The notes under the pieces: model-generated
What the model was told of the DNA's origin: nothing
Databases searched by the model: none
What the model saw: only the letters and a program-made list of their open reading frames with translations
DNA from: Malacoraja senta
Taxonomy: Eukaryota
NCBI GenBank assembly: GCA_038087875.1
Contig: CM075994.1
Coordinates: 2,234,001 to 2,298,000 of the forward strand
Direction of reading: 5' to 3'
DNA: 64,000 nt
Position numbers and translations under genes: made by a program
In this document: piece after piece, positions 3,896-62,000 of the stretch
Layout: every line of letters begins with the position of its first letter
Numbering within the stretch: the first letter of the stretch is position 1

Positions 3896-4394
3896 TCTTA
3901 AGTGTGCTGGAGATCTGCAGCTTGTTGTGTGAGCTGCGGCCAGGAGGTGGCGCTCGTGCTCGAGTGGGAGAACCTGGGTGTGAATCTGCTCCACCAACCA
4001 TTACTTGGGGTCCGACGCATTCAGCTACCATCTCTACAGATAAAACCTCTGCCCTTCTTCAGTGGGTGAAAGTTCCCATCGCGAGGGGGGTGGGCGACTC
4101 CTTATTTATTCCTTGACTGACCTCAGATAAGGAGATGTTATATTGTCCTATCATGGTGACGTGACTTTAGTACACAGCCATCTAAAGTTATCCATCTACA
4201 GTTCAAACCAGCCCTGGCAAAATGCACACAGGTTCTGGAGTAACTCGGCGGGTCATGCCACAACTCTGGAGGACATGGATTAGCAATGTTAAGGGTCAGG
4301 ACCCTTCTTCACGCTGATTATGGTGGGGGTGGGGGGGAGAACATTTGTGGAAACAGAAATGTTAATATACAGAGTGCTGGAGCAACCCAGCAGT

Positions 4395-4700
4395 TTTGTT
4401 TTAGTTTAGAGGCAGTGTGGAAACAGGCCCTTCGGCCCACCATGTCCACGCTGACCAGCGATCCCCATGCACGAGTTCTATCCTACACACCAGGGACAAT
4501 TTACAATTTTACCGAAGCCATTTAAACTACAAACCTGTACGCCTTTGGAGTGTGGGAGGAAACTAGAGCACCCAGAGAAAACCCACGCAGTCACAGGGAG
4601 AACGTGCAAACTCCATCCAGACAGCACCAGTAGTTAGGATCGAACCCGGGTGTCTAGTGCTGTAAGGCAGCAATTCTACTGCTGCACCACATTGCCGCCA
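4395..4700 (-). mobile_element. HE1/V-SINE-type tRNA-derived SINE
   Basis: The reverse complement has an A-box/B-box head (ggtgcagcagtaga...gggttcgatcc), a V-domain (ttctccctgtgactgcgtgggtttt...ttcctcccaca) and a LINE-like tail (ggccgaagggcctgtttcc...ctaaactaaa). Confidence 0.85.
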
Positions 4701-5701
4701 GGTCAGGAAGACATACAGTAGATAGGTGACATTTCGGGTCAGGACCTTTCTTCAGACTGTCGGACTTGCCGAATTACTCCAGCACTTTGTGTTTGTTTTT
4801 TGTAAACAGCATCTGCAGTTCCTTGTTTCCTTACACCAGCAGTGTGCGACTGAGCTATTTAGCTGCTTTCCTGTTCCCTGCCATCAGGCAATCAGCTTTA
4901 CAAATGTTTAAACATCACCCCTTCAAAGGTTTCAAAGGTCTTTTATTGTCACATGTACCAATTAAGGTACAGTGATATGTGAATTACCATACAGCCATAT
5001 GAAAAAAAGCAACAAGACACACATACATACAATTTTACATGAACATTCACCACAGTTGATTCCTCACTGTAATGGAAGGCAAAAAAGTCCAAACTTCTTC
5101 CTCTTTATTCTGAAGACACAAGGAACTGCAGGTGCTGGTTGGCAAAAGAAAAGACACCAAGTGCAGGAGTAACTCAGTGGGTCAGACAACATCTCTGGAG
5201 AATATGGGTCCCTGTCCCTTTCCACCTATATCCATCCTCTGGCTTCACAATTCGAACCTCCTCTATCCTCATCTCACACTTTTTGTCTTTATATCTCTGG
5301 CCTTTGTATGAACATCTGCCTATCAAAGTCCCCTTCCTCACCTGTATCCACCTATTACTTGTGTAGGAAGGAACTGCAAATGCCGGTATATACTGAAAAT
5401 AGACACAAATTGTTGGGGTTACTCTGGGTCAGGCAGCAGCTCTGGAGTAAAAGGATGGGTGACATTTTGGATCGGGACCCTTCTTCAGACATCTATCCAC
5501 CTATTAGTTCAAGAAGTCAAGTCAAGAGAGTTTATTGTCATGTGTCCCAGATAGGACAATGAAATTCTTGTTTGCTGCAGCACAACAGAGTATTGTAGGC
5601 ATAAATACAGAACAGATCAGTGTGTCCATATACCATAGAAAATATATATACACACATAAATAAACAGATAAAGTGCAATAGGCTGTTATAGTTCAGAGTT
5701 T

Positions 5702-6200
5702 TAAAGAAGGAACTGCAGATGCTGGAAAATCGAAGGTACACAAAAATGCTGGAGAAACTCAGCGGGTGCAGCAGCATCTATGGAGCGAAGGAAATAGGTA
5801 ACGTTTCGGGCCGAAACCCTTCTTCAGACTGATAGGGGGTGGGGAGAAGAAAGGAAAAAAGGAAAAAGGCGGAGGAGGAGCCCGAGGGCTGGGGGAGGGG
5901 AGGAGACAACCAGATGGCTGATGAAGGGGAGGGGACAGCAAGGGCTAGCAGAATTGGGAGAATTCAATGTTCAGGCCACCAGGATGTAGACTGCCCAAGC
6001 GGAATATGAGGTGCATTTCCTCCAATTTACGGTGTTGCTCGCTGTGGCCATGGAGGAGACCCAGGACAGAGAGGTCAGATACGGAATGGGAGGGGGAGTT
6101 GAAGTGCTGAGCCACCGGGAGTTCAGGTTGGTTATTGCGGACCGACCGGAGGTGTTCGGCGAAACGATCGCCAAGCCTCCGCTTGGTCTCACTGCTTGAC
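5702..6200 (-). mobile_element. Penelope-like element 3' fragment: GIY-YIG endonuclease C-terminus plus terminal repeat with hammerhead motif
   Basis: The minus strand from ~6190 reads ETKRRLGDRFAEHLRSVRNNQPELPVAQHFNSPSHSVSDLSVLGL...RKLEEMHLIFRLGSLHPGGLN (PLE GIY-YIG). It is flanked by the direct repeat TAGTTCAGAGTTT (5689-5701, 6201-6213). Confidence 0.85.
5799..5827 (-). ncRNA. Minimal type I hammerhead ribozyme motif (PLE-associated)
   Basis: The minus strand reads CTGAAGA-A-GGG TTTCGG CCC-GAAA-CG-TT. The CUGANGA and GAAA core is intact, with a helix II and a palindromic ACGT helix III. Confidence 0.7.
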
Positions 6201-7120
6201 TAGTTCAGAGTTTGTTTGAAGTTGTGTTTAATAGCCTGATGGCTGTGGGGAAGGAGCTGTTCCTGAACCTGGATGTTGCAGATTTCAGGCTCCTGTACCT
6301 TCTACCTGATGGCAGCGGAGAGATGAGTGTGTGGCCAGGATGGTGTGGGTCCTTGATGATGTTGGCAGCCTTTTTGAGGCAGCGACTGCGATAGATCCCC
6401 TCGATGGTAGGGAGGCCAGAGTCGATGATGGACTGGGCAGTGTTACAACTTTTTGCAGCCTTTTCCGCTCCTGGATGCTCAAGTTGCTGAACCAAGCCAC
6501 GATGCAACCAGTCAGCATGCTCTCTACTGTGCACCTGTAGAAGTTCGAGAGAGTCCTCCTTGACATACCGACTCTCCGTAATCTTCTCAGGAAGTAGAGG
6601 CGCTGATATGCTTTCTTTATAATTGCATTAGTGTTCTGGGACCAGGAGAGATCTTCGGAAATATGCACGCCCAGGAATTTGAAGTTCTTCACCCTTTCCA
6701 CCATCGACCCGCTGATATAAACGGGACTGTGGGTCCCCATCCTACCCCTTCCAAAGTCCACAATCAGTTCCTTGGTTTTGCTGGTGTTGTGAGCCAGGTT
6801 ATTCACTCTGACTCATCCCCATCAGTGATACGTCCCACAACAGTGGTGTCGTCAGCGAACTTGATGATGGAGTTCGCACTATGTCCGGCTACACAGTCAT
6901 GAGTATAGAGTGAGTACAGCAGGGGACTGAGCACGCAGCCTTGAGGTGCTCCCGTGCTGACTGTTATCGAGGATGACACATTTCCACCAATACGGACAGA
7001 CTGTGGTCTGTGAATGAGGAAGTCGAGGATCCAATTGCAGAGGGATGCGCAGAGACCCAGATCTGAGAGATTGGTAACCAGCTTGGAGGGAATGATGGTA
7101 TTAAATGCTGAGCTGTAGTC

Positions 7121-10100: not shown

Positions 10101-10451
10101 TGGTCAGAGAAGAACACCGGCGTGAGGTCGGTGTGTCTCACCGTGACGGCCTTCGTCGTGAAGACAAAGTCTATCTGGGATCGGGCTAAACCATCTGATC
10201 TCGACCAGGTGAACTGCGGCTGGGACCCGCCTGCAGGGTTGCTGAAGGCGTCGTGCAGCTTTGCATCTTTTACCGTCTCCATCAGGGGCTTGGAGGTGCT
10301 GTCCAGTCTGTTGTCGGCACTGCCGGATCGTCCAGCCGCATCAATGATGCAGTTGAAGTCACCGGCCAGAACGAGCTGCCGGGACGTGGCCAGCAGCACT
10401 GGGAGCTGCTGGAGAACGGCCAGCCGCTCGCTCTGCACGGGTGAGGCATAC
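7121..10451 (-). mobile_element. Tx1-clade (L1 group) non-LTR retrotransposon, 5'-truncated ORF2
   Basis: Three ORFs in the same frame (10453-9044, 9040-8492, 8488-7376) are split by two stops. They carry APE motifs LAGDFN, FTWSR and FFSDH; RT motifs KTPGSDGLPAELY, WRPITLLNVDYKIL, LDQEKAFDR, GVRQGCPLSP and YMDD; and a C-terminal CPRDGC..ETVAHLFAEC. The A-rich tail starts at 7121. Confidence 0.9.
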
Positions 10452-12325: not shown

Positions 12326-12984
12326 TTTGTTGTCATGCTTTGTCCTGACTTCTCTCCTCCAGCTTTCTCCTCTTCCCCCCCCCCCCCCCACCCACAACAA
12401 TCAGTCTAACGAAGGGTCCAAACCAGAATCATCTCCAGAGATCCTGCCTGACCCACTTGTTTACTCCAGCACTTTGACCCCTTATCCTGATGTATCTACT
12501 CTTCAGACCTCCCCACTTCCATTTTGACCCCAGAGCTGCTGCTGCGAGCCAGGTGGATGGTTTCCTGTTGCACATTTTCACATACAGCAGGTGGGCTGAG
12601 GGAATGCAAGGATCTCCTTGCAGTCTGCTGTACTATTTTCCACCCGCACCCTACCCCAGTCTGACCCTTTCTTGTTATCTGTTATCACCCACACTATGTA
12701 TGTCAGATCAGTCAGTGGGCGATCTCTACAGGGGAATTTTTTACTCTTCAAATTTTCCCTTTGTGTCTGTAAGCAAAGTAGTATGCACGTAATGCCTGTG
12801 CAGAGGTCATGCCAAGAGTTAGAATGAATTCCCAAGCAGGCAAGCTGAACAAAGGGCAACCTACTGAGATGCCTATTGCAGAAAGGAGAGTTGTATTCCA
12901 AGTGCGAATATTGTTTGACAATATGAAATGAGTAAATTGCTTACAAATAACCCATATGCTGCATTAGTAATGAAAAGAATAGTT

Positions 12985-13375
12985 GATAGTTTTGTTTGTC
13001 ACGTACCGAGGTACAGTGAAATGCCTTGTTTGTTGCGTGCTATCCATTCAGCAGAAAGACTACACATGATTTACAATCGAGCCATCCACAGTGTACAGAT
13101 ACAGGATAAAGGGAATAATGTTTAGAGCACGATGAAGTCCAGTAAAGTTCAATTAAAGATAGTTCCGTCTCCATTGAGGTAGGTGGGAGGTCAGGACTGC
13201 TCACTCGTTGGTGATAGGACGGTTCAGTTGCCTGATTACAGCTTAGGAGGAAACTGTTCCTGAATCTGGAGGTGTGCGTTTTCACACTTCTGTACCTCCT
13301 ACCTGATGGGAGAGGGGAGAAGAGGGAGCGTCCGGAGTGAGACTCATCCTTGATTAAGCTGGTGGCCTTGCGGTA
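12985..13375 (-). mobile_element. Rex1-related LINE/SINE 3' fragment
   Basis: KTHTSRFRNSF-type end plus the 3' UTR (gtcacgtaccgaggtacagtgaa...gatacaggataaaggg), which recurs at 15455-15710, 46425-46640 and 51700-51915. Confidence 0.65.
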
Positions 13376-14864: not shown

Positions 14865-15155
14865 GGCGGCTCAGTGGAAGAGCTCCTGCCTTACAGCGCC
14901 AGAGACCTGGGTTTGATCCTGACTACGGGTGCTGTCTGTACAGAATTTGCACGTTCTCCTTGTGACCGTGTGGGTTTTCTCCAGGTGCTCCAGTTACCTC
15001 CCACATTGCAAAGATGTACAGATTTGTAGGTTCATTGGATTTGGTAAAAATTGTCCCTCGTGTGTGGGATAGTGCTTGTATATGGGGTGATCGTTGGACG
15101 GCATGGACTCGGTGGGCCGAAGGGCCTGTTTCCACGCTGTATCTCTAAGGTCTAA
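14865..15155 (+). mobile_element. HE1/V-SINE-type SINE
   Basis: ggctcagtggaagagc..cttacagcgccagagacctgggtttgatcc...V-domain...ggccgaagggcctgtttccacgctgtatctctaa. Confidence 0.85.
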
Positions 15156-15710
15156 AGGGGCAGGACTGCATTGCTGCTGACAAAAGAAGGGTCCCGACCC
15201 AAAAAGTCACCTATCCATGTTCTCTAGAGATGCTGCCCGACCCGCTGAGTTACTCCAGCAATTTGTGTCTATCTTTCAGCTACCGTGATGGTCACAGACA
15301 GGCAAATCGGTGGCTGTGGATGAGTCGAGAGCCATCACTAGAAGGGAAGGGCTGCTCAAAGTAACTTGGTGCTTGAGACGGGGCAGAGGTACAGCTTATT
15401 GGATGTTAGTTAGGCTGCATGTGGAATGTTGTGTATGTTTATGATCAGCCCATTGGTTTAGTTTACTATTGTCATGTGTACTGAGGTCAGTGAAAAGCTT
15501 TTTTGTTGCATGTTATCCAGTCAGCAAAGAGACAGTACATGATTACAAGCAAGCAGTCCAGTGTACAGACAGATAAAGGGAGTAACGTCTAGCGCAAAAT
15601 AAAGTCTAAAGTCCCATTAAATATAGTTCAAAGTGCTCCAATGAGGTCGGTGGGAGGTCAGGACCGCAGTCCAGTTGGTGAGAGGACTGTTCAGTTGCCT
15701 GTTAACAAAC

Positions 15711-16118: not shown

Positions 16119-16247
16119 CTGGTCTGAAGAAGGGTTTCGGCCCGAAACGTTGCCTATTTCCTTTGCTCCATAGATGCTGCTGCACCCGCTGAGTTTCTCC
16201 AGCATTTTTGTCTACCTTCGATTTTCCAGCATCTGCAGTTCCTTCTT
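16119..16247 (+). mobile_element. Short Penelope terminal-repeat element with intact hammerhead core (16124-16151)
   Basis: CTGAAGAAGGGTTTCGGCCCGAAACGTT followed by ~95 bp near-identical to the reverse complement of 5702-5800. Confidence 0.78.
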
Positions 16248-16409
16248 AGACAGGAAGGATATGGTGGCTTTCGAGAGGATGCAGAAGTGGTTTACCAGAA
16301 CACTGCCTGGATTAGCAGGAATACCTACAGGAAAGGTTGGACAAACTTGGATTATTTGCTCTGGAATGTCGGAGGTTGAATGGAGACTTGATGGAAGTAT
16401 ATAAAATTA

Positions 16410-17554: not shown

Positions 17555-17577
17555 TACAGATATAGATTATAGATATA

Positions 17578-18413: not shown

Positions 18414-18424
18414 ATAGATATATA

Positions 18425-23925: not shown

Positions 23926-25043
23926 AGCATGTTGAAGTGTCTAGGATCATGAGGGAAATGGATAAAGTGACCGCTCAGTCATCTTCCCCAGGGTAGAGGG
24001 CCTGAGTGGAAGAAGTTGCCCCTGACGTCCCCCTTAAATCTCTCCCCTCTTGCCTTAAGCCTAGATTTAGAATCCTGGATGAAAGACTGAGTGTATTCAC
24101 ATTATCCACGTCAACCTTGTGACTTACTGCACCATTATTTATGTCACGTGTACCAAGGTACAGTGAATAGCTTTTTTTTGTTGCGTGCTAACCCGTCAGC
24201 AGAAAGGCTGTCGTTTGCCTGCACAGTGGGACAGCTGGTAGGGCCATTGTCTCACAGCGCCAGAGGTTTGATCCTGACCTCGGGTGCTGTCTGGGTGTGG
24301 AGTTTGCACTTTCTCCATGTGGCCTCGTCGGTTTCCTCCGGGTGCTCCGTTTTCCTTCCACATCCCGAGGATGAGTGGGTTTGTTGGTTAATTGGCCCTC
24401 TGTAAATTGCAATTACGACTTTCAAAATACATTTAGACAGATATATGGATAGGAGGGGTTTGGAGGGTTGTGGGCTAAATGTGAGCATACGGGACTAGCC
24501 CAACATGCTGACTTGGTTGTAAAGGACAAGGTGGGCTGCAGGTAGTGGGTACAGCTCTCCATCTCTAAAACACTCCAGGAGTTCTTGTTGAGCAATACGT
24601 TATCTGCACCTGCCATCTCTCAGCTCAATACCAAGTGTTGCAGCTCAAAGCTGCAACAGTGGAACAGTGGTTGTTGAAAAAGCCGAGATAAAGCGTTTCC
24701 TGAATAATTCTCAGTAATTCCTCACTCACAACAAACTTCAAATATGATCCAAATAAAGAACTGCGTTTAAAAATAATGAGATGGCTAAAGAAAGGGAGGC
24801 AAAAGCTTACGCTGTGCTGATATCCGCTTATTTTAAATTAGTATAAAATAATACTTAAAGGACACAAAGTGTTGGAGTAACTCGACAGGTCAGGCAGCAT
24901 CTCTGGAGATCACAGTCATAAAGCACGGAAACAGGCCCTTGGGCCCAACTTGCCTATGCCGACCGACATGCCTCATCTATACTAGTCCCACCTGCCTGCG
25001 TTTGGCCCATATCCCTCTAAACCTTTCCTATCGATGTACCCTG

Positions 25044-25335: not shown

Positions 25336-27048
25336 GTGAATGCGTACGTGCGTGCTTGCAAGGTCCCTCAGGTTCCTATTAAAACTTTCCACCCTCACCT
25401 TAAACCTATCCTCTGGTTCTTGATTTCCCCTAATCTCAATAAAAGGCACCTGATTTACTCCTCTTCAGACCTTTGTGACCTTTTGTGTATTAGCCACATC
25501 TGCAGTTCTTTCTTTCTACATAAAACAATGCATTGAATGCAAATGTTGAGCTAGAGCTAGCCACTAACTATCATCACCCAGTAGAAATGGCACCATTAGC
25601 AGTCTGACCTTACACTCACACATTTTGCTGGTGCTATCACAACGTTTAAAATGCATTTGGACAGGCACGCGGATGGGACAGGTCTTGAGGGATATGGGCC
25701 AAACACAGGCAGGTGGGACGTGTAAATGGGGCATGTTGATCGGCGTGGGCAAGTTGGTCCGCAGGGACTGTTTCCACGCTAATGACTCTGGGATTCTATC
25801 CTCCTTCATTTTAAAGGGGCATGAAAATATTTCTGATAATAAACAAATATTAATCTGAATGAGGTGCACTGGCGAGAGACTGAGATAATTACCTGTAAGA
25901 CATATGCCCACCCTCTTAGTTCAACCAACTCCTCAATCCTACCACCACCCGCCTTGTTGTGCTGTTCACCCCCACAGTGCTGCTTGGAGGTTATTTAATT
26001 CTGTGCATAATGAAGGATAAATGATGATGATCTCTCAGCTACATTTTCGGCAATAATTCATGTTTACGCTGGGCGAGGTGAGGCATGAGAGGTGGCACGA
26101 AGGCGGAGCAGTGGCTGTGTGAGGCGAAAGGATCGAGAGTTGAGGTGTCGGCAGAGTGGGCCACTGGAGGCCTTGCAGCAGCCTGAGGCTCCATTAGATC
26201 GGGCATCGCTCCAAGAGGCAGAGCGCGTGGATCGGATGCGGCCTGCAGCGGCACACAGCGGTGGAGGACACCAACAACATGACTGGCCAGGCCGATCCTG
26301 CAACTCCAACCCAGTGCTGCCACCAGGACAATGGGCCTTTACAGCCAAGTTAAGACTCTAAAAATGTTAACAACATTGAACTTGAAAGGTACAATATAAC
26401 ACGCTACTCTTGTGTGCTTCGGTGGGCAGTTAGAACCTTATTCCCAGAGTGGAAATGTGAAAGCCTAGTCATAGCTTTAAGGTCAGAGGGAAAAAGTTTA
26501 AAGGATATTTGCAGATATGGTGATCTGTATTTCTAAACTAAACAATCCCTGCCACACATCACTAGCATGAAAAGGCAGATGAGTAAGAGTAGTGCGTAGA
26601 GGCAGCAGACTCGCTGCCCTGTATCTGATGCCCGAGATTTTGGTCGTGTCAGTGATAAGAAAATATATGAAAACCTGGATGTTTCCTGCTGCAGCCTGCA
26701 AGCGGTACCTGTCTCCCACTTACACTGCATGCTCCAGGGTAATTCCCCTCTCCACACCACCACGAGTCCTCCACCCACTCCCATCAGCAGCTTCCTCAGC
26801 CCACTTCCTTCTGACATTTGCAAGCATCTGTTTGGGTGCTGCGCACCGTGTTAATGCAAGGGCCTGTTTCCAAGCTATAAGACTCTATGCTGGTTTACAA
26901 AACAAGACCAGCTTGGAAACAGGCCCTTTGGCCCAACTTGTCCACACTGGCCACTTGTCTACACTAGTCCCACCTGCCTGCATTTGGCGCATATTCCTCT
27001 AAACCTGTCCTATCCATGTACCTGTCTAAAACATTGCAATAGTACCTG

Positions 27049-29329
27049 CAGGGCTCTCGCTTAACTTCTTTTCCCTGTTGCCAGCCGGGCAACCTTGGCA
27101 GCTTTTTAGGTTGCCAAATGACAGTTTAGGTGGTCATTTAAGATGGCTTACATGACGCGTGCGATAATGTGCTTGGACGAAGTGCATAGTTACCAGTCGG
27201 AATTATGCTCAATGAAGCATTCACATATTATTTCTGCTTCAAATAAAGTCACAAACTAAACATATTCACCAATCAAGACATGATGTATCCCACAATGACA
27301 TAGCAAAATTATGACAGTATCTCAACTCTTTTTACACATTGCAATGAATGCAATTTCTATTAGTTCTTTCCACTTCCAAACAAAAATGTGGTTGGATTAT
27401 TCAGCGTATGATCAACCTGTGTCAATAAAACCTGGACCGTGGTAAAATATATGCGTACGTATAGTTGTGAATGTTGCTCATTAAATAACTACAGTACTGA
27501 TACTCCATATTAAGAGCATTGATTTGCCGTTAAAATGAATTCTGTAATAACGTGTCAACAGCAGCAGTGACAATCGAACACTGCGGTTTTAATGTTTCAC
27601 GTGTTCACAATTTAATTAATCCAACTTTATGGATTAAAACAAATAATAACATTGGGAATTAAAACACATTTGATTGCATTCCGTTATCAAACATAGTAAA
27701 TGTTCGCTCTGAAGACATTTCCAGCACAATAGGGTCAGGGAGGGGGGTGTGTGTGAATCAGTGCGGGGTGGATAGATGGCGGGGGTTGGTGGGGGGGGGG
27801 GGGTTAGAAGGCAGTCGGTGCAGAATGGATGGATTGAGGCAGGTGAATTAGTATGTGTTGGTTGGAGTAGGTAAAATTGTGAGGGGAGAGCATGGGGGAT
27901 GTCAGTGGTGTTGAATGGGGGGGTTCAGTACGGGATGGATGGGGGTAGACAAAAGTGCTGGAGAAACTCAGCGGGTGAGGCAGCATCTATGGAGCGAAGG
28001 AAATCGGCAAGGTTTCGGGTCAAGACCCTTCTCAGACTGTTCCCCCCATTCTTCTTGAATGGGAGGATCAGTACAGGATGGATGGGGGGGGGGAGATCAG
28101 CGCAGGATGAATGGGTGGGGGGGTCAGTACAGTGTGGATCGGAGGGTCTGTGCAGGATGAATGGGGACCACTACAGGATGAATGAGGGGAAGGGGGGAAG
28201 GTGCAGGGTAAATGGAGGGTGGGTCAGTACGGGATGAATGCGTGGATTAGTACAGGATGGATGGGGGATCAGTACAGGATGGATGGAGGAGAAGTGCAGG
28301 ATGGATGGGAAAGGGGTAAGTACAGGGTGAATTGGGGAACCAGTGTAGGATGGATGGGGGGGGGGGGTGGTTGGCAGGAGAATCAATGCGAGGTGGATAG
28401 GGTGATCAGCGCAGGATGAATAGATGGGGGGAGGGTAGATGGGGAGGGGAGCACAGGGGATGTCAGTGAGGACTGAATAGACGCGGGAATGGGGATCAGT
28501 GCGGGATGGAGTGGAGGGGTCCCAGGATAAGGGGGTGGAGGGGGCGTACAAGAGAGAGAGAGAGAGAGAGGGAGGGGGGGGAGCGAGGTGGGGAGGAAGG
28601 AAGATCAGCGCTCCTTGGATAACATCGCCCTGCTGCCTTGGCCGTTGGGAACTCCTCGCCACCGCCTCCCTCTTCCGCCAGCCAACAGCAAGGTGCAGGG
28701 CCGGGCGGTGCAGCTCAGAGATCCTATAGCCATAGGATCTTTGGTGCAGCTGCTTCAGACGAGTCGGAGTGAATGACGGGCCCCGAACAGCAGCAGCAGC
28801 GGTGGCTCCATCTCCTCCTCCTCCCGCACCCCGCCCGCCCGCCCTGATAAGGGCCGCTGCTTGCAAACCCGCTAACGGTGCAAAACAAACCCTCCAGCAC
28901 GCCGAGGCCTCCCCCTCCCTCCCTCCTCCCAGCCTCGGCGTGCGGAAGGATTTGTTTCGAAAGCGGTTATCGCCGTTAGCGGGTTTGCAAGCAGCGGCCC
29001 TTCTCAGGGCAGGCGGGGGTCGGGAGGAGGAGATGGAGCCGCTGCCGCTGTAGCCACTGTGCGGGGCCCGTCATTCGCTCCGACCCTTCGTCACCCCGCA
29101 CCTAGTATCTTTGCCCCGCACGACAGCCGTCACCGCCGACACAAAACGTCACGTTCCTTTTCTCCAGAGATGCTGCCTGACCCGCGGAGTTACTCCAGTT
29201 TTTTGTGTCTATCTTCGGTACAAACCAGTTTCTGGTTGCCAAGCCGAGCAAAATGACTCTGTGTTTAGGTTGCCCGGCGGCGCTTTGAGTGGTCAGTGGC
29301 ACCCGGGCAACCGCTAATTTCGAGCCCTG
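27049..29329. mobile_element. 2.3-kb non-autonomous DNA-transposon-like element with CAGGGCTC...GAGCCCTG termini
   Basis: 8-bp terminal inverted repeat and multiple subterminal GGTTGCC/GGCAACC motifs at both ends. It splits a CR1-type tail (agtacctg|cctccgctacc). Confidence 0.65.
27735..28600 (+). repeat. Degenerate G-rich minisatellite (~22-25-bp units such as GGGTCAGTACAGGATGGATGGGG) and (GA)n
   Basis: Many imperfect copies of cagtacaggatggatggggg are directly visible. Confidence 0.8.
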
Positions 29330-41129: not shown

Positions 41130-41427
41130 AATTTAGAATTTAGGGATACAGCGTGGAATCAGGCCCTTTGGTTCACTGAGTCCGCACCGACCAGCGATCA
41201 CTGTACACTAGCACTATCCTACACTCTAGGGACAATTTACAATTTTACCGAAGCCAATTAACCTACAAACCTGTACGTCTTTGGAGTGTGGAAGGAAACT
41301 AGAGCACCGGGAGAAAACCCACGCGGTCACGGGGACAATGTGCAAATTCCGTATAGACAGCACCCGTAGTCAGGATCGAACCCAGGTCTCTGGCGCAGTA
41401 AGGCAGCAACTCTACTGTTGAGCCACC
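41130..41427 (-). mobile_element. HE1/V-SINE-type SINE
   Basis: Near full-length copy of the family at 4395-4700. Confidence 0.87.
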
Positions 41428-42008
41428 TTCATTCCCAAGTGCAGAATTGAAAAGTAAATAGTTTACAGTTCAGATAAAAGCGGCAAATCAAATCTTTCGC
41501 GTAACATGAAGGGTCCTCTCTGTGTAGCCATATAATGTGACATTTAAAATCCCTCTTTGTTCTCAGCGGTCCCCCCCAGGCTGCAGCGGTCCCCCCCAGG
41601 CTGCAGCGGTCACTCCCAGGCTGCAGCGGTCCCTCGACTGACCGTCGGGACTCATGCGGGCCCATTTACATTTTTTTCCTAATTTAAATTCAGATTATAA
41701 TAATAATCTGATTATATGTAGAAAACTAAACTGGGGATCTCTGGGAATTACCAACTCATCATAAGACAGGCATGAGTTCAATGGGGAAGGAACTGTTGCA
41801 GCAAACCGTCTGTCTATATCAGAAATCGGAAGACTCGTGGCTGAATGTTAAATCCAAGTATATGACGGAGCAGAAATTTTAGTTGAGGGTAATTTCATAG
41901 ATGGGAAACTGAAAGTTAACAGTGATAATAATTGAAATATCACTTCCCAGAAATCCACTGAGTGAATGTAACCGTTAGTTATGTAAAAGTTATTCAAGTC
42001 AGGGCAAA

Positions 42009-42044
42009 AGGTCTGAAGAAAGGTCCCGACCCGAAATGTCACCT
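42009..42044 (+). ncRNA. Minimal hammerhead ribozyme motif in a short Penelope-derived element
   Basis: AGGT-CTGAAGA-A-AGGTC CC GACCC-GAAA-TG-TC-ACCT. Helix I is AGGT/ACCT with a GUC cleavage triplet. There is one mismatch at the base of helix II. Confidence 0.6.
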
Positions 42045-42744
42045 ATCTAAATTCTTCAGAGATGCTACCTGACCCGCTAGTTACTCCAGCACTTTGTGCC
42101 TTTTTGTAAATCAGATTCTGCGGATCCTTGTGTTTCCAGCTAATTTTGTGTTTGATTAATTGATACTTTAGTCACATGTATTTGGCACAGCGAAATTCGC
42201 TATTTTACGCAAATATGCAGAGTCGTCACGTAAAGGATGGCGACTAAGTTACAAGAGTATTACTTATAGCCCCGATTGTCCCTCTTCCTTCTCTCCATCA
42301 CGAGTCCCTTTTTGTACTCAGTGGCTCCTCCTCCCTCCCCCCCCCTCCCCCCCTCCCCCCCCCACGCCGGATCCCCCTTTGTTTTCAGCAGCTCTCCCAC
42401 GCCGGGTCCCTTGTTGCTGGCAGCGTGTCCTCGACCGACTGCCGGGACTCCTAATGCCCCCTAATGTGTAGGGAGTGGATGTGAAAGTGGGATAACAGAA
42501 CTGGTGTGAATGTGGGCCCGTCCTCGGCACTCACACTCCGACCCTCTTCCCTCTCCGGCCCCCCTCGCTCTCCGGCCCTCCACTCATCTCCTCCCTCCTC
42601 TCTGACTGCCCTCCTCGCTTTCCGGCCCTCCACTCACCGACGCTCAGCCGGCCCCAGTCCTGGTGGGCTCCATGCCAGCGGCCTGCCCCGGTACCGTACG
42701 GGTGCACATCGCTCGCTGGGAGCTGCCTTGATTGATTCAAAGAT

Positions 42745-48168: not shown

Positions 48169-48261
48169 GTAAGCACCTTTACATTCATTAAGTCCACAGT
48201 CATAGAATTATCATTTGATTAATATTGGAGTTTGGGGTATTAACTACAAGGAGAGTAATGA

Positions 48262-48443
48262 AAAGGAACTGCAGATGCTGGTTTATACCAAAGACAGACA
48301 CAAATCGCTGGAGTAGCTCTGCAGATCAGGCAGCATCTCTGGAGAACATGGATAGGTGACGTTTCAGATCGGGGCCCTTCTTCAGACAAATAGTCTGAAG
48401 AAGAGTCCCAACCCAAAACGTCACCTATCCACGTTCTCCAGAG
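48262..48443. mobile_element. Fold-back Penelope-derived short element (hammerhead-like motif on each strand)
   Basis: tctctggagaacatggataggtgacgtttc..cccttcttcagac AAATA gtctgaagaagag..aaaacgtcacctatccacgttctccagaga. The imperfect flanking repeat is AACTACAAGGAGAG (48242-48255) / AACTATAAGAAGAG (48444-48457). Confidence 0.7.
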
Positions 48444-49998
48444 AACTATAAGAAGAGGTTGGACAATCGGATTGTTTTCTCTTGAACATCGGAAGTTGAA
48501 GGAAGACCTGGTAGAAGTGTATCAAATTATGAGAGGCGTAGACAGTCTGAACCTTGCTCACAGGGTGGAAATGTCAAAGACTAGAGCACATAGGTTGAAG
48601 GTGAGAGGGGCAAAATGTAAAGGAGATGTGCAGGCCCAAGTCTTTTTAAACAGAGAGTGGTGGGTGCCTGGAATACCCTGCGGGGTGGTGGTGGAGACAG
48701 ATACGATAGCTGTGTTTGAGAGGCTTTTAGGTGGGCACATGGATATGGAGGGATATGGATGAGATGAGGCAGATGAGATTAGTTTATCTTGGCATCATGT
48801 TGGGCATAGATATTGTGAACTGAAGGACCTGTCCTTGTGCTGTACTGTCCTGTGTTCTAAAACTAGAGGTCATAGGTTTAAGGTGAGAGGAGAAAAATGT
48901 AAAAGGCATCTGAGGGGCAATTTTATCACCCAGAGTGGTGGGTATAAGAAATGAGCTGCCAGAGGAAGCTGTACAATTTCAACATTTAAACAGTTACATG
49001 TATAGAAAATATTTAGAGCGGTGTGGGCCAAACACAGACGAATGGGACTAGCTCAGGTAGACAACATGTTCAGCATAGATTAGTTGGGACAGAAGGACTG
49101 CTTTCATGCTGCATGACTTTAATTCTGTAAAATAATTGTGGTACACATCTAGTTACTGCTGGCAGTCCTGCCCATTTGCAGATTAGTTACTTAACTATGT
49201 AATCTTCTACGGGTTGGAAAACAATCCAAGATCCTGGGCCTTTCACTCTTTCCTCCCCAAACCTGCCTGCCTCTTCTACTTGCCCCTTTAAGTCCCTTCT
49301 TAATGCCTGCATCTTTGGTCAAGTTTTGGCCATCTGTCCTGATATTTCTTTGGAAGATAGACTCAAAATGCTGAAGAAACTCAGCGGGTCAGGCAGCATC
49401 TCTGGAGAAAAAGTATACGTGACATTTCGGGTCAGAAACAAGTCAGAAACCTTCTTCAGACACAAAATGTTACCTATTCTTTTTCTCCAGAGATGTTGCC
49501 TGACCTGCTGAGTTACTCAAGCATTTTGTGTCTACCTTTGGTATAAACTAGCATCTGTAGTTCCTTCCTACCAAATTTTTTTTGCGTGGCTTGTTTGTCA
49601 AATTTTATAATCTGTCCTGTAAAGTGCCCAAGGACGTTTAAAAGTGCCAACTAAATATTGTTTTTGCCGTTGTTGCTGAAATACCTTGATCATGTCCAAA
49701 TGGTAAAGAAAACTTGACCAAGAGCTCCCTTATCCTTGAACCCACGAGTCCTCTATATTAATAGTCTCTACGTGGTGCATTTTAGCTGCCGTGGCGAGGA
49801 GCTTGTATTTAGATAATAAAAAGCATGGGACCATGGACGTCAGCTTGTGTTTTATTCTTATGTGCCATCATTTGGATTGAAAGCAAATTGGTGTATGAAG
49901 CCTGAGGGTGACAGCTTTTGATTTCTTGTATTTAGGCGACCCAGCAATAACAAAAAAAAGAAAACAAAGACCTTAACTTTGCACTGCTGATTGGATTA

Positions 49999-50025: not shown

Positions 50026-53000
50026 GTGAGTTGTAAATGTTTAAATAAATATAATCAGACTGTTAAATTGAATCAACTGATTTTCAGCCTTAGCTGCAGA
50101 GTTATCCTGCTGCAAATGTACTATATTTTCTTGGTAACTGAAGTAAAAGTGATTTTAGTGTATGCTTATGAAAGGGTCACACTGAACCAATGTAACCGGA
50201 AGAAGTAAATCTGAGTGGCTCATTCGGAAGATATGCCTTTGGCTCTAAAATAACAAACTAGTAGTTTTCTTACGGGTTAAGAAATCAATAGATGTCAGCT
50301 AGCTGCAATTTTCTGAAATGTAATTTTATCTGAAAAGTCAAACAAATATGGTCAACAATATAAATTCATAGTGTACGCTGTGGGATTAAGATTGTATTGC
50401 TCCAATGTCATTACCGAGCTGAAAGACAGACATTTAATGTGTGTGTGTGTCCGTGTACACGTGGATTGTAGGTTTCTAACTGGGTGTGTAAATCTGCTTT
50501 TAGTATGTATTGGACATAGCAGTGTGAACATGCATGTCATTTATGTGGGTATAATAGTGCCCGAGTGTAATGATTTTAGTGTATGAGAGCGTAGCATTGT
50601 ATTAGCCGTGTAATGGTGTGAATCCAGTAAAGTATAATGGTGTAAATGGGAGTCATTATATCATGCATTGTATGTGAAAGCCAGAAATATGGAAGATTCT
50701 AGGGATAATCAGCAGATCAGGCAGCATCTGTGGAGAGAGAAATAGAGGTTGATAGTCTTTCACAGATATGTGGGACCTATATTGGTTTGTAATTTGGACA
50801 TTTAATGGTGTATTATGTGAGAAGTAAGATTATGTGTGTTTGCGTGTAGATGTAGTGTGGATGTATAACAAGGGTTTTAGACGTATAATAATAATGTATT
50901 ATAGTATAGATGAATGTGTATTATACATAATGTAGATGTATCAAAAAGGTTTATACATAGTGTAGATGTATTATAGTGTATTATCATGGTGTAGATGTGT
51001 GATAATATGTTATAGTGTAGATGTATGACGGTGTATTACACACAGTGTATATGTATGAGTGTAATACACAATGTGCAGATGTATGATCGTGTATTACACA
51101 ATGTGCAGATGTATGATAATGTATTACACATAGTGGAGGTAGATGTATGATTAAAAATATTTTAAAGGCCAATTGTAGAAAACCTTATCAGTCTAAGGAG
51201 GATGATATAGTACATTTCTGTTATTCCATGTGTTAATGTATGCAGGTATGATGGTGCATGTATGTGTGTTGCTGCGATTATAGATGGATCTTTAAGGATT
51301 GATCCCAACAAGTAGAGAAACATTGGGTTTCCCACTTTTGTGCTACTTATAGGCTTGACACACCAGCAGTGGGCCATGTGGGGCAGCCAGCAATGAGGCA
51401 AAGCCAGCTGCGTAGTGGGGAGATATGAGGGGGTAGAAACAAAATTGAAAGTTAGCACCTGCCGTGTTCTAGTTTCTGGGTTTTCAGAGGTGTTTGAATG
51501 CATGCTTATTCGTGACAAAAATACTTTTATCTTCACAGTCTAAAACACTAACCGTAAGCAACATGGAACCACCTGGTGAGGTGGTAAAGACACTACTAAC
51601 GGAACCAGCAGAGCCGGTGAGTGATCAGTGGAATAAATACCTCTTGCAGGGCCTAGAATGGACAGGCATTTATCCATGATGAAAATAATTTAGATATTTT
51701 TAGTTTAGTTTATTATATTATTGTAACGTGTACTGAGGTATAGTGGAAAACTTTTTTGTTGCGTGCTGTCCAGTCAGTAGAAAAACTGTACATGGTCACA
51801 ATCAAGCCGTGTACAGATACAGGATAAAAGGAATAACATTTAGTGCCAGGTAAAGTCCAATTAAAGATAGTCTGAGGGTATCCAATGAGATAGATGGTAG
51901 CTCAAGACCACTCTCTTATTATTTTGCAGTGGGAATGGAAATATTTCCGGCAATATACCTGGCTTGTAATTAGATCATTTTAGATTTTGTTTGATACATT
52001 TATGTTTTAGGTATGTTTATTAAACTTTGATGAATGAAACTGAGGTGTAAATTTAACTACATGTGAAAACAAGAGATTGGCGTTACTATTAAATGACTAG
52101 TTGTACTTGTGATGTGTCAGGTCAGTATCTCACTGCATCTTGTTTGTATTTTTAGGGAGATACTGAGAACCTCCAACTGGTGCTGTCAAACAGCAAGAAC
52201 TTGGTTTCTTCCCTGATTGGTGAGTTTGAAAGTAAACCAGCGTATTCTCCCGCCAGATGTACGAGCCTGTGGTTTAGCCAGTTACAAACAGACAGTCAAG
52301 AGCCTCCTCAACCTCTCCTTTAAGCTAACGCATCATTTAAATAGATTGATTGAAAGTTACAGCATGTAAACATGCCCTTCGGCCCACTGAGTCCACGCCA
52401 ACTATCGATCACCCATTAACATTATTTCCATGTTATCCCACTTGTGCATCCACTCCCTACACACTAGGGGCAATTTTCTTTATAGATGTGATTAATCTAC
52501 AAACCCCGCACATCTTTGGGATGTGGGAGGAAACTGGAGAACCTCGAGGAAACCCACGTGGTCACAGGGAAAACTGTGAGACAACACCCGAGGTCAGGAT
52601 CGAACCTGGGTCTCTGGTGCTGTGAAGCAGCAGAGGTGCCAGAATGCCGCCTCTTTTTTCATTTTTTTTTTAAATCTATCAGTGAGAGTGGGTACTTGGT
52701 TACTGGCTTGAAAACAACTAACAAAGATAGACACTGAGTGCTGGAGTAACTCAATGGGTCAGGCAGCATCCCTGAAAAACATGGATAGGTGATGTTTCGG
52801 GTCGGGACCCTTCTTCATTCCCGACCCGAAACGTCGCCTATCCATGTTCTGCAGAGATGCTGCTTGACCCATTGATTTACTCCAGTACTTAGCGGCATTG
52901 TTTTGTAAACCAGCATCTGCAGTTCCTTGTTTCGCTAAGAAAGAGTAAAATTTTAAAGACACCATTGTACGTCTTTAGAGATTGGTATCTTTATCCTATA

Positions 53001-56000
53001 GTATGTTTTTGTTATTCCATTTGTTAATAGAAATTAACAAAGGTGAACTATGGAAATATTTAATACGTTTTTTATATATGGGGGTCGTACTTTCCCGAAT
53101 CACTTCCCCATGTACTTTCCCTGTCTAATTTCTGTCTGTGCTTTCGCATGTATTTGTATGATGAATAGATACTTTCACATCTATTTTTTCATTTTACTTT
53201 CACATATTCAGATGCTTAGGCTTGTGGTCGAAATCCCCCTTCACGTGCAAATGCTATCAATTACATTAAGATCAGCTTCCTGGTTCTAATGCACAAGTTC
53301 CCATTTCAAACAGAAGCTGATTGGGCATGCATTTTTTTAAATGAAGAGTCTTTTATTTGAATTTTTATTGCTATTATTCATTTCCTATCTAATGTGGTGA
53401 GAATTACACATAATTAGCTTATCTGCAGATTTCTTTTCTAGGAAATGCTACTTCGAGCTAAGGCTGGCATGTGCACAGCTATGTAGATTGTACCACAGAT
53501 TGTTCCAAAATGCAGATGTGGGCAGAAGGAAAGAATAAAAAAAGAAACTTGTTCTTTTAGATTGTGGCATTGTATTCTAATCATACTTTTTATTGCCCTT
53601 GTAGATCATCGGTGTACATTCAGCACCAAGACAAACCAATTGCGCAAAGAACAGGCAAAGTGTGATTTGTCATCAGGCAACATGGAAAGAAAGCCTTTCA
53701 AGTCATCAGAGAAATCCTGCTGCCAAGTCCAACACTCTCAAGGTACCATCAGAGATGTAGAAACAAGGAATTGCAGATGCTGGTTTACAAAAGAAGACAC
53801 AGTGCTGGAGTAGCTCGGCGGGTCAGGCAGCATCGTAGGAGAAAATTGACATGTGAAGTTTCAGGTCCGGGCCCTTCTTCAGACTGGTAAAGTCTGAAGA
53901 AGGATCCGACCCGAAACATCACTTATTCATATTCTTCTGAGATGCTGCGTGACCTGCTGAGCGACTCCAGCACTGTGTCACTCTCCAGGTACGTTGGGTG
54001 AAGCTGCTTTTGAAAAGTAGAAGCGATTTTGAGAGAGGTTCTACCATTGCAAACATGTGGAAGTTTGATAAACACATGCATTGCAGAATTCTGTAGGATT
54101 GGTGGTTCAGAACAATTCTGTTTCAAGCTTCTTATGTAAGAAAGTACCCGGATTGAGCTTGATCTCCGGTTTTGAAATGGTAAACATTTACTGAGAGGCA
54201 CAGCATCACTATGAGCTCCCCATAATCCATCCTGCCCTGTACCTATCCTCAGGTTAGTTTGTATGTTGTCGTGCAGGTTGAAATAAAATTAATGGAGTGG
54301 CACAGAGGTAGTTGCTACCTTAAAGCGCCAGAGACCTGGGTTCGATCCTGACTATGAGTGGTGTCTGTATGGAGTTTGCACATTCTCCCTGTGACCATGT
54401 GGGATTCCTCTGGGTGCTCCCGTTTCCTCCCACATTCCAAAGACGCACAGGTTTGCAGGTTTGCAGGTTAATTGACTTCAGTAAAAATCGTTTTAAAAAT
54501 TGTCCCAGTGTATAGGATAGTGCCAGTGTACTGGGATCGCTGGTTGGCATGGATTCGGTGGGCTGAAGGGCCTGTTTCCGCACTGTATCTCACTGTATAA
54601 ACGAAACTAAAATTGCTTTTGAACTCAGTTGTTAAAATTACACCCTCCCTGTTATATTTCATTCACGACTATGATGACATTTCCTTTTCTTTCATTTGAA
54701 TCAGATGCCAGATTGAAGCACTGCAAGAAAAACAAACTAAAAGGACAGTGGCCTTTCCGTAAAAACTCAGCAAGCAGTGAATCCCATTCTTCCAGGAATG
54801 ACGGCCTTTTTGATCGGCCTCTTAAAGACGTTTGTGATCACAAAGATGTTCTCAGCAAGCCAATCCTGGTAAGTTGACAGTAACCCTCCCTCCCAAATTC
54901 TCATGCCAAGAACTGGGGCCCAGCATACATGAGGGGAAAAGATTGGGTAAATGCACAGTCTTTTGCCCAGAGTAGGGGAATCGAGAACCAGAGGACATAG
55001 GTTTACGGTGAGAGGGGAAAGATTTAATAGGAACCTGTGGGGTAGCTTGTTTACACAAGTGATGGTGGGTATATGGAATGAGCTGCCAGAAGAGATAGTT
55101 GAGGCAGGGACTATCATAATGTTTAAGAGAAGTCTGGCCAGGTACATGGATAAGATAGGTTCAAAGGGCTATGGACCAATTACGGGCAGGTGGGACTAAT
55201 GTAGATGAGGCATGTTGGTCAGCGTGGGCAAGTTGGGCTGAATGGTTTGTTACCATGTGGTATGACTACTAAAGATTGACACCAGCTACATATTCATAGA
55301 ACAGTACAGTGTAGACGCAAGAGATTGTAGATGCTGCAATCTTGCGTAGAACACAGTGCTGGAGTAACTCAGCATGTCAGGCAACATCTCTAGAGTTCAC
55401 GGATAAGGTTCAGGCCGGGATCTTTTCTTCTAACTCGGTGGAACAATACGGCAAAAGAACCATAGGTCCCATAGCCCACAATGTCCGTGCCAAACATGAT
55501 GCCAAGATAATCTAATCTGATCTTGCCCACACATGATTCAAATCTCTCCATTCTATGCAATTTTCAGGTTGGACTTTGTGTATCTGAACTGGTTCCACAG
55601 AGAAACAAAATGAATATGTTTAAAGTAATAGTGATAGTGGAACTGTTGCAAAGAATCACTTTTCCCCTGTATGGCTTGGTTGCAAACATGTTTTTAGAGA
55701 GTCATGAGATTGAGAAATAGCCTATCGAAAGCTGCCTTTCTGAGCAAATAATTTCTTGTAATAATAGTTTCCTTTTCGTGTTGTGTTTTGCTCTAGGATA
55801 TCCTGACCGTCCTGCTCCAGAAAGGACCCTCATCAGTTGGAATATTTCGAAAGTCAGCAAACGTAAAGACCTGCAAGGAACTAATTGAAAAACTAAACAC
55901 GGGAAAGGAAGTGTTCTTGGAGGAGGAACCCGTCAACCAGTTGGCTGCTGTCTTCAAGGTAGAATAAATTGAAACTCGAAACAGGGGTTGCAGAGCTGGG

Positions 56001-59000: not shown

Positions 59001-62000
59001 ATAGGAATTGATTGAAATAGGTATAAAATTTGTGGTAAAAAGATCATTTTTATTGCGTTTATTCGGCCTATTAAAGACATCGGAAGCGTTTTCCAGAATT
59101 TAATTAATGTATTCAGTTTATTAAGTAGGGGGTCAAAATTTGCCCTGAGCATACCTTGATATGCTCTGGTAATTTCGATTCCCAAATATTTAAATTTTTC
59201 TGTAGCTATTTTAAAAGGGAATTTTAAAAGATGTGTTGAATCTTTCGGTTTTATTGACATAATTTCACTTTTATTCCAATTTATTCTATATCCAGAAAAA
59301 GATCCGAAGTCTTCAATTAAATTTAATATATTTGGTATAGTGATTTGAGGTTTTGTAATATACAATAATATATCATCCGCGTATAAAGATATTTTATTAT
59401 ATGAGTCTTTAGTATTATATCCATGAATATCAGGGTGTATTCTAATTTTTTCTGCTAGCGGTTCAATAATGAGAGCAAACAGCTGTGGTGATAATGAGCA
59501 TCCTTGTCTATTTCCCCTTGATAGTTGAAATTTCAAGGATAATATGTTATTAGTAAGTATTCTAGCTGTAGGTTTGTTATATAGTAACTTAATCCATAAA
59601 ATAAAATTCTCTCCCAGTTGAAATTTTTGTAATACTTTATCCATATAATTCCATTCTACTTGATCAAATGCTTTTTCAGCATCCAGCGAAATAATTGATA
59701 ATTCTTGATCTTCAGATTTGTGTGAGTGCATTATGTTGAGTAGACGTCTCATATTATTAGAAGAGTATCTCTTAGGGATAAACCCTGTCTGATCTGGGTT
59801 TATTAATTTACTAATGTATTTACTTAATCTTCTGGCTAATGTTTTCGCTAATATTTTTTGATCTGTGTTTAACAATGCTATAGCTCTATATGAGCCAGGT
59901 TCTTCTAAATCCTTATTTTTCTTAGGTATTAATGTAATCGTTGATTCCGCTAATGTATCAGGTAGTATTCGTTTTTTAAAAGCGTATTGGTACATTTTTT
60001 GTAATCTTGGTATTATTTTATCATAAAAGTTTTTATAAAATTCATTAGTAAATCCATCAGGGCCTGGTGTTTTTCCATTTTTTAGTGAGTTTATTGTATC
60101 TTCGTAACTAACTAATATAACAGGAACTTTTTACTTTTGCTTTAGGCTTCTGGCAAAACTTCCAAACCACAACTGCCTCTTACTTCGCTATGTGTTTTGT
60201 CTGCTCTACTACATTAATAAGCACTCGGAGGTGAACAGGATGGATGCCTACAATCTTGCTATTTGCATTGGCCCAAATATGCTCTGGCCCAACAAACCTC
60301 CACTGGATGCACTGCAGAAAGAAGTAACTGCAAAGGTAAATAAATACACCTTGCATGCTGTTAACCTCTCTGGATAGAACATAGAACAGTACAGCACAGT
60401 AACAGGCCCATTGGCCCACAATGATCATGCTGAATATGATCCAAGTTCAACTGATCTCATCTGCCTGTACATATCCCTATATTCCCTGCATTTCCATGTG
60501 TCTACCTAAAAGTCTCTTAAATGACACTATTGTATCTGCCTCCACCACCACCCATAACAATGCATTCCAAGCTCCCACCACTGTGTAAAAAAACTTGATC
60601 CGCACATCTCCATTACACTTCCCCACTCTCAACTTATAGCTATGTCTTTTGGTGTTGGAAATTTCCACCCTGGGAGGAATGGTTCTGATTGTCTACCCTA
60701 TCTATGCCTCTCATGATTTTATACACTTCTATCAAGTCTCCCCTCAACATCAGACGTTCCAGAGAAAACCTCTGATGTTCCAGAGAAAGGTGGAGAAAAT
60801 TTTGAGATTAGCAAATAGTGAAAGGCATGGATAGAGTGAATGTGGAGAAGTTGGTTCCACTAGTGGGAGAGTCTAGGACCAGAGGCCATAGCCTCAGAAT
60901 AAAAGGATGTACCTTTAGAAAGGAGATGAGGAGGAATTTCTTTAGTCAGAGGGTGGTGAGTCTGTGGAATTCTTTGCCACAGACGGCTGTGGAGGCGAAG
61001 TCAATGGATATTTTTAAGGCAGAGATTGACAGATTCTTGATTAGTTAGGGTATCGGGGTTATGGGGAGAAAGCAGGAGAATGGGGTTGAGAGGGAAAGAT
61101 AGATCGGCCACGATTGAATGGCGGATTAGACGTGATGGGCCAAATGGCCTAATTCTGTTCCTGTAACATATGATCTTATGAACAGAAAAAATACAATTTG
61201 ATCGTTTGTAACATTTATTCTGAATATTGATTCTATGCAACTATCACGCAGTGATCAAATCCATTTTCACTACAGGTTGTGGCTCTGACGCAGTTTCTGA
61301 TCGAGAACTGTTGCCCGATATTTGGTAATGAGACAACTACACTTCTGGGTGAACCAGCACAAGGGCTATCAGAAAACACTGACAACCTGGGTAAGTAGAA
61401 CATGCATATGCGTCACATTTTAAATTAACTTGCATTTATATACTTCAAGACATTACAATGTAGTTTACAACCAATGAGTTACATCAAGGGCAGCTATTAA
61501 CATGCATTGGGCAAACCTCACAGCCAGACTTTACAGAGAAAACAATGATTTTGCTTCCGAATGCAGAAATGTTGGCTAGTTATTTGGACTACTCCTCCCA
61601 TCTTGCCTCTTGCAAGGACTCCTCTTTCAAAGAAATGCTCTTATTTTTCTTTGATCAATGCTTATATATTGTTTAAATTCTCTCAGACACACTGGTTCAA
61701 TATCTCACTGGTTCAATATCTCACTCCTTATTCACATTGTAACATGGATTCATTATCCCCACTCAATTGTCAACCTAGACTGTATGCTCAAGGCCTGAAG
61801 AACGATTTTTTTTCATGGCCATATGACTCACGATCAGATATAGGAAGATAACATTCAAGAGAGATAGAAGGCAAAAAGTTCTGGATTAACTCAGCGTGTC
61901 AGGCAGCTTCTCAGCGAGAACATGGATAGGCGATGTTTTGAGTCTGGACCCTTCTTCAGACTGATTGTTTTGGGGCGGAACTGGAAGAGAGGAGGGATTG

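Follow-up and report, generated by a model that had tools for sequence, protein, structure and literature searches.

Hammerhead-bearing repeats in a 64-kb window of the Malacoraja senta genome are probably decayed 3' ends of Penelope-like elements

Introduction

Short repeats with a hammerhead ribozyme motif are scattered through a stretch of 64,000 nucleotides (nt) from the skate Malacoraja senta (GenBank assembly GCA_038087875.1, contig CM075994.1, positions 2,234,001 to 2,298,000 of the forward strand), hereafter the window. Are these repeats a small mobile element of their own, as a first-pass annotation had proposed, or the remains of a larger one? Our analysis indicates that they are very probably the 3' ends (pseudo-long terminal repeats, pLTRs) of endonuclease-bearing Penelope-like elements (PLEs), likely of the Neptune clade, which were likely inserted by their own reverse transcriptase (RT) and endonuclease and have mostly decayed. 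This reading is based on the position of the unit after a GIY-YIG open reading frame (ORF) and its 3' untranslated region (3'UTR), on tailed and tail-less ends, on head-to-head pairs with a single tail, and on target duplications.

Extent of the repeat family

A repeat profile was built from the copies in the window (132-nt model, cut-off E ≤ 0.05), with the reversed window as control. The profile found 37 repeat pieces, which cover 3281 of the 64,000 bases (5% of the window), and nothing in the reversed window. A shorter 100-nt profile gave 34 pieces and again none in the control. By inspection, the 37 pieces were grouped into about 25 insertions. All 18 positions named in the first-pass annotation carry the unit on the strand given there, and further hammerhead copies were found at 31203 (-), 37426 (+), 49462 (-) and 55435 (-). 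Both boxes of the hammerhead core are spanned by 22 pieces. A two-box hammerhead pattern had six matches against 0.04 expected, a number reached in 0 of 100 shuffles, and a strict hammerhead descriptor had three matches in the window and none in the reversed window. The motifs at 5827 (-) and 16124 (+) are the only pristine ones among the 22, which bears out the earlier view that these two cores are the best preserved and that most others have decayed.

With its tail the unit measures about 130 nt, and when tail-less about 100 nt; it extends about 95 nt beyond the predicted cut site. It had been described as a non-coding unit of about 100-200 bp. The repeat is real, but six of the 22 hammerhead copies run upstream into a 3'UTR, and two run into coding sequence.

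Link to Penelope-like coding sequence

The following features connect the unit with the coding region of a PLE.

5702 to 6221, minus strand: 5'-truncated PLE insertion of 520 nt with the end of a GIY-YIG ORF, 3'UTR, hammerhead and tail; exact 13-bp target duplication on both sides
5945 to 6190, minus strand: last 81 codons and stop codon of a PLE GIY-YIG endonuclease, by homology to P0002 and P0004
5797 to 5831, minus strand: pristine minimal hammerhead of young subfamily A; cut predicted between 5800 and 5799
16119 to 16248, plus strand: solo pLTR of subfamily A with pristine hammerhead and tail
36759 to 37126: PLE insertion with a short inverted arm, last endonuclease codons, 3'UTR, hammerhead and tail; exact 15-bp target duplication

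The hammerhead at 5827 (-) lies about 118 nt past the stop codon of the endonuclease frame, with a pyrimidine-rich 3'UTR between them. The best protein match of the 81-residue fragment is P0002, a model from Leucoraja erinacea (little skate), at 86%, and the fragment shares 66% identity with the C-terminus of whale-shark P0004. A Pfam search with the fragment alone gave no match. P0004 carries both RVT_1 and GIY-YIG domains and aligns with full-length RT-endonuclease proteins of 830-950 amino acids. A PLE-type RT is present in the close homologues P0004, P0014 and P0016, and the window copies are truncated before the RT. A CX2-5CXXC linker between RT and endonuclease is described as a feature of Neptune in PMC8557442. 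The homologues P0003 and P0004 have a CX4CXXC linker, and the window copies end short of that region. Judged from these homologous sequences, the parent elements likely belong to the Neptune clade. In the DNA contigs of run X15, a loose end at 6192 runs on into codons for the YIG motif. The second copy with coding sequence, at 36759-37126, still has the final codons of an endonuclease ORF of this type, and the solo copy at 16119 (+) is 97.6% identical to the ORF-linked copy over 126 nt. The first-pass annotation had proposed a very high-copy, non-autonomous element. The family is of high copy number and nearly all of its copies cannot encode their own enzyme, but this identity between solo and ORF-linked copies indicates that they are PLE ends and not a separate element.

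The same layout was found in metagenome loci. Among 80 related loci, 41 contain the end of the endonuclease, and 37 of these have at least 200 nt downstream. The strict motif lies 63-170 nt downstream of the endonuclease in 10 of the 37, and in 0 of 37 in both the antisense and the within-ORF controls. Searches of metagenome and viral contigs for the exact skate-type motif gave no match, and none of the 31 candidates from a protein-pattern scan of viral contigs was a relative. In the zebra-shark gene model P0005 the reading frame continues through the 3'UTR, and its last residues resemble a translated hammerhead region, which hints at the same layout in sharks.

Architecture of the insertions

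The 3' ends of the 37 pieces are bimodal, with two classes about 30 nt apart. Seventeen end at model positions 129-132 and 14 at 91-107, and the others end at 117-119 (two) or 38-57 (four). An inverted arm is present in nine of the approximately 25 insertions, namely that at 36759-37126 and the first eight below; the last line gives a copy nested beside one of them.

4220 to 4827: complex insertion with an inverted tailed arm, a pLTR split by a repeat resembling a short interspersed nuclear element (SINE; about 4396-4712), and a second head-to-tail unit
5117 to 5361: inverted tailed arm joined to a piece of 3'UTR with a 79% match to the 3'UTR that precedes 37426 (+)
31072 to 31285: head-to-head pair, only the minus arm tailed
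32184 to 32676: inverted tail-less arm, the 3' end of a long interspersed nuclear element (LINE; 32251-32499) and two head-to-tail pLTR pieces, between 9-bp direct repeats
48260 to 48444: head-to-head pair, minus arm tailed; possible decayed 14-bp target duplication
49352 to 49569: head-to-head pair, asymmetric junction, plus arm tailed
52719 to 52932: head-to-head pair, asymmetric junction, plus arm tailed
53733 to 53992: head-to-head pair, minus arm tailed; 14-bp target duplication with one mismatch
5364 to 5493, minus strand: solo pLTR and tail, nested in the 5117-5361 copy; exact 13-bp target duplication that ends 3 nt upstream of the hammerhead

In all eight insertions with two pLTR arms, the tail of about 30 nt is present on exactly one arm. 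The head-to-head junctions vary from pair to pair, and in several pairs non-consensus bases are common to both arms. These shared bases suggest that both arms of a pair came from one template. Four insertions have exact target duplications (13, 13, 15 and 9 bp), another has one of 14 bp with one mismatch, and in two more the duplication is weak. As a control, random flank pairs scored at least 10 in 0 of 150 cases and at least 8 in six of 150. Target duplications were not found in most old copies. Head-to-tail duplications occur at 4759 (-)/4315 (-) and 32500 (+)/32558 (+), the second a partial tandem at 32500-32653, and the partial tandem at 4220-4827 holds two hammerheads head to tail. Some insertions are nested. 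One PLE end lies inside the 3'UTR of another at 5117-5493, the ORF-linked copy at 5702-6221 lies in a LINE tail, and three PLE insertions are thus found within 1.1 kb.

By analogy with the PLE of Anolis (PMC11167929), the PLE protein would nick the DNA and prime reverse transcription at either of two sites within the RNA, which would give tailed and tail-less ends. Copying would then proceed toward the 5' end of the RNA, and at 100-130 nt most products would stop, having reached the hammerhead's upstream edge. The mirror arm would likely be made from the same template within the same insertion. Cleavage by the hammerhead is predicted only for a dimer or with help from protein, in the RNA of the parent element; in the scattered copies the hammerhead would be a passenger.

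Subfamilies and decay

The copies fall into at least two subfamilies that differ in age. Three copies belong to subfamily A, among them the solo and ORF-linked copies compared above. Among the 14 long older copies, identity is 74% from copy to copy and 84% to their majority line. Units of the older subfamily B type with a 3'UTR are found at 4315 (-), 12401 (+), 37426 (+) and 61964 (-). Across 19 older copies, 40 of the 112 CpG cells in the motif carry a change, and eight of the 19 have a mutated catalytic G12, as expected from CpG decay. From these patterns and from the non-CpG core comparison given below, the window copies look as if they are decaying neutrally.

Structure of the hammerhead motif

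All 11 core bases are intact in nine of the 22 copies, and four of the 22 passed all checks; among these four, one has an 11-nt duplication that was masked by the model, and helix II is weakened in another. Because helix III consists of a four-base palindrome and lacks a loop, it can close only between two molecules. Helix II has 4 bp and helix I has 2-3 bp in the window copies. An unpaired base after A9, an opening G-C pair of helix II (G10.1-C11.1) and a UH cut site are complete in the 5827 (-) and 16124 (+) motifs. From hammerhead numbering, the 5827 (-) motif is predicted to be cut between 5800 and 5799. The motif had been identified as the minimal type I hammerhead of PLEs with palindromic helix III, and its features agree with those listed in PMC4209133, which include the unpaired extra A before helix II, G10.1-C11.1 and the palindromic helix III. 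The first-pass annotation had pointed to an extra A before helix II in this family. The base is a standard feature and no local peculiarity: it is conserved in the minimal hammerheads of PMC4209133 and present in ten of ten motifs from distant relatives.

Points where the copies begin

Sixteen of the 22 hammerhead copies start within about 5 nt of the 5' edge of the motif, not at the cut site, and no pyrimidine tract precedes them. The upstream pyrimidine share is at most 0.61 in these 16 copies versus at least 0.71 in the six copies with a 3'UTR. Reads were taken from three RNA runs of two related organisms (1-6% of each run) and from one DNA contig set, at 85% likeness. Heterogeneous loose ends are found at 5829 in the DNA and RNA runs, and in the DNA contigs the depth rises 4-8 fold at about 5830, a step that is partly inflated because the 3'UTRs of other subfamilies fall below the 85% cut-off (loose ends at 5831-5833).

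For this edge we favour a defined 5' end of an RNA, in the simplest case a site within the pLTR where transcription begins, although we put its probability somewhat below even. The upstream edge of the hammerhead presumably resembles the initiator consensus. Promoters of PLEs have been located in the pLTR (PMC6765202). The edge starts might instead go back to a splice acceptor or to a short master element. At 5829-5870 (-), a pyrimidine tract is followed by CAG directly before helix I and is similar to a 3' splice site, and in Penelope of D. virilis an intron ends at the same place (PMC4209133). A splice acceptor is not favoured, as no upstream exon is common to the 16 edge-starting copies.

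A smaller number of copies start at or near the cut site. The piece at 32558 (+) starts exactly there, 32500 (+) starts at +2, and two more start within 5 nt, which makes four of 13 internal starts (P = 0.011). This cluster was recognised post hoc, three of its four members lie in the insertion at 32184-32676, and stalling of the RT at helix I would give the same positions. Judged from the sequence, these starts may go back to templates that had been cleaved, with switching between templates, to a stalled RT, or to a later LINE insertion accompanied by a deletion. The 249-nt LINE 3' end in 32184-32676 could possibly belong to a PLE-LINE chimeric cDNA. Taken further, the stumps would be a fossil map of PLE RNA ends, in which the main class came from a pLTR transcript of about 130 nt that served as its own SINE-like template, and a minor class, one set of which is fused to a LINE 3' end between the repeats of one target duplication, came from hammerhead-cut RNA with a template switch to the RNA of another element. 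We offer this only tentatively and consider it unlikely on the whole.

Alternative origins of the repeats

Several observations weigh against an origin of the repeats as ends of self-inserting PLEs. Random truncation fails to account for the 16 edge starts. The window contains neither an RT nor a full-length element, and the autonomy of the parent is judged from its homologues. In subfamily B the upstream sequence is 3'UTR only and no coding sequence was found there, so that its parent could be non-autonomous. The strict motif was absent from 27 of the 37 related metagenome loci. In one test, nine of 15 insertions had no target duplication; two further matches scored 6, and the match at 52719 scored 7.

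Some of these points would be explained by a short non-autonomous master, either a solo pLTR of about 130 nt or a palindrome of about 200 nt, which has its own transcription like a SINE, uses PLE protein in trans and is the source of most older subfamily B copies. Such a master would fit the 16 copies that start at one edge without a 3'UTR upstream, the depth step and loose ends at 5829-5830, and the subfamily B units for which no coding sequence was found, and an origin of such derivatives from PLE ends is argued for in bioRxiv 2026.07.22.740005. However, subfamily A has yielded solo and ORF-linked copies of 97.6% identity, and four B-type units do have a 3'UTR. Since palindrome junctions vary between pairs, one palindromic master is a poor fit; the depth step is, in addition, inflated by the 85% cut-off. 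We therefore regard a short master as quite unlikely.

A non-LTR retrozyme (LTR, long terminal repeat) was also considered, in which tandem transcripts self-cleave, the monomers circularise and Penelope reverse-transcribes them. This is close to the spread by self-cleaved or circular RNA that the first-pass annotation had suggested. The dimer-type helix III and the two head-to-tail duplications are consistent with it, and the unit is heavily covered in all three RNA runs as well as in the contig set. Coverage in the two directions is about equal in the two paired runs, so that strand and origin are unreadable, and passenger transcription of many copies would give the same coverage. The RNA libraries are poly(A), oligo-dT and single-cell libraries, which would miss circles and 5' cut products. 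With libraries that are weak for such ends, no pile-up of read ends was found at the cut site or elsewhere in the three RNA runs, and no back-joint was found among the 15 joints listed for them. In the window, no tandem array of the unit was found among 28 tandem-repeat rows, the longest period of which is 45 nt. A wraparound from tail to hammerhead is not the dominant form in any copy, two copies extend into the endonuclease ORF, and most 5' ends lie at the hammerhead edge and not at the cut site. The definition of retrozymes in PMC7229834 also refers to canonical hammerheads in tandems of 150-450 bp and sets the minimal PLE type apart. A retrozyme is thus very unlikely, and the circular RNA route proposed earlier is not upheld.

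The conservation of the motif was also compared with that of its flanks, since an excess in the core had been expected from a working ribozyme. The core has 14 non-CpG changes, where flank of matched base content predicts 19.7, and the difference is not significant (P = 0.12). For non-CpG changes, a comparison with the whole flank gave P = 0.009 (14/189 versus 129/896), which became P = 0.13 without the columns that vary between subfamilies. The excess was rejected as evidence because the copies had also been selected for having both boxes. Between subfamilies A and B, none of the 11 core positions differs, and all five differences inside the motif preserve the fold. In these sequences, the sameness of the core fits selection on the parent elements, with small numbers. 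When distant relatives were aligned with five window copies, the core was invariant and all three pairs of helix I were changed on both sides; the distant-relative loci had been preselected for pairing, and the covariation is therefore partly circular. The dimeric hammerhead fold of the two pristine copies was computed at -6.5 and -7.1 kcal/mol, versus a computed dimer minimum of -28.8. These modelled energies are in keeping with reports that such motifs have low activity or act with the help of protein, and are no proof of function. A Rfam scan of the window gave 22 matches at E ≤ 10, with no hammerhead family among them. That the resemblance to a hammerhead is accidental or without function and the unit merely the end of a repeat, as the missing Rfam match, the short helix I, the distance of the fold from the dimer minimum and the base-matched P value might suggest, is hardly credible given the unchanged core and fold-preserving differences between A and B, the changes on both sides of both helices in distant relatives (subject to that circularity) and the protein-assisted cleavage of a PLE hammerhead in PMC11167929.

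Remaining copies and neighbouring features

The other copies in the window are as follows.

12340 to 12479, plus strand: decayed pLTR and 3'UTR remnant
15178 to 15279, plus strand: solo pLTR with decayed core, tail-less
24858 to 24912, minus strand: 3' fragment without hammerhead, joined to the end of another repeat
25451 to 25514, plus strand: tail fragment
27944 to 28041, minus strand: subfamily A solo pLTR, one core base deleted, tail-less
29136 to 29234, plus strand: pLTR fragment that starts within helix II
35234 to 35280, plus strand: tail fragment
35376 to 35504, plus strand: solo pLTR and tail, G12 mutated
37237 to 37594, plus strand: 3'UTR and pLTR, interrupted by other sequence
42008 to 42132, plus strand: solo pLTR and tail
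50693 to 50737, minus strand: decayed 3' fragment
55317 to 55435, minus strand: old divergent pLTR and tail
61864 to 62012, minus strand: pLTR and 3'UTR remnant, G12 mutated, tail-less

The window is dense in repeats and contains remnants of LINE reverse transcriptase and endonuclease, an integrase remnant and many SINE-like repeats. An abundant SINE-like family of about 300 nt is found at 4396-4712, 14886-15139, 41149-41429 and 54297-54585, and its first copy splits a pLTR. The integrase core (rve) remnant at 400-1053 (+) is probably that of an LTR retrotransposon. ARAGORN found a tRNA-Phe(GAA)-like gene or pseudogene at 2864-2935 (+), with an Rfam score of 47.9 bits. Several miRNA models match a long, near-perfect hairpin at 3096-3196, below their gathering scores. 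A serine-rich open frame of 483 codons at 62441-63892 (+) is probably a host exon; it had no Pfam hit, and an Atlas look-up of 62441-63889 gave nothing that reached 0.9 (best score 0.85).

Comparison with known systems and significance

The family is similar to the minimal hammerheads in pLTRs of metazoan PLEs described by Cervera and de la Peña in 2014 (PMC4209133), which share the CUGANGA and GAAA boxes, the unpaired base before helix II, G10.1-C11.1 and the palindromic 15.2-16.2 pairing without loop III. Those motifs are also mostly single and dispersed, tied to truncated PLEs, with some close pairs on opposite strands. The Schistosoma families in that paper differ in having 7-8 bp in helix II and 4-5 bp in helix I, against 4 and 2-3 bp here. 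No mention of cartilaginous fish was found in the passages of its main text covered here. [quoted passage not shown] Unlike those elements, most insertions here consist of the pLTR alone, their 5' ends lie at the hammerhead edge, and about 25 insertions occur in 64 kb. Poseidon of Anolis carolinensis (Frangieh 2024, PMC11167929) is reported to have two 3' ends a tail length apart, a pLTR hammerhead and a cut site at which no RNA reads end, as in our data. It belongs to a different clade, whereas the closest homologues here have the Neptune-type cysteine linker, and the window family is known from sequence alone. The non-LTR retrozymes of PMC7229834 and bioRxiv 2026.07.22.740005 share the type I hammerhead, the short unit, the dependence on a PLE enzyme and the pLTR origin. 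In contrast to them, the family has no tandem array, is inverted and not direct, and is continuous with a PLE ORF. The canonical hammerhead described for retrozymes has a helix I of about 6 bp and a loop III, neither of which is present here.

Literature searches found no description of this skate or ray family; repeat databases (Repbase, Dfam) and supplements were outside their scope, and the family may already be catalogued. The ordinary result is one more abundant PLE family with a known minimal hammerhead on its truncated ends, and a retrozyme adds a step that the evidence does not need. The in vivo role of PLE hammerheads is called unclear in PMC8557442. PMC11167929 reports that the PLE hammerhead cleaves with the help of protein and that its cleavage is unnecessary in vitro. 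A genome with such a density of copies would let 5' breakpoints be counted against the cut site over thousands of insertions. If the stumps do record PLE RNA ends in the way proposed above, the minor class that starts at the cut site would provide the first trace, left in genomic DNA, of RNA that a PLE hammerhead had cut and that was later reverse-transcribed.

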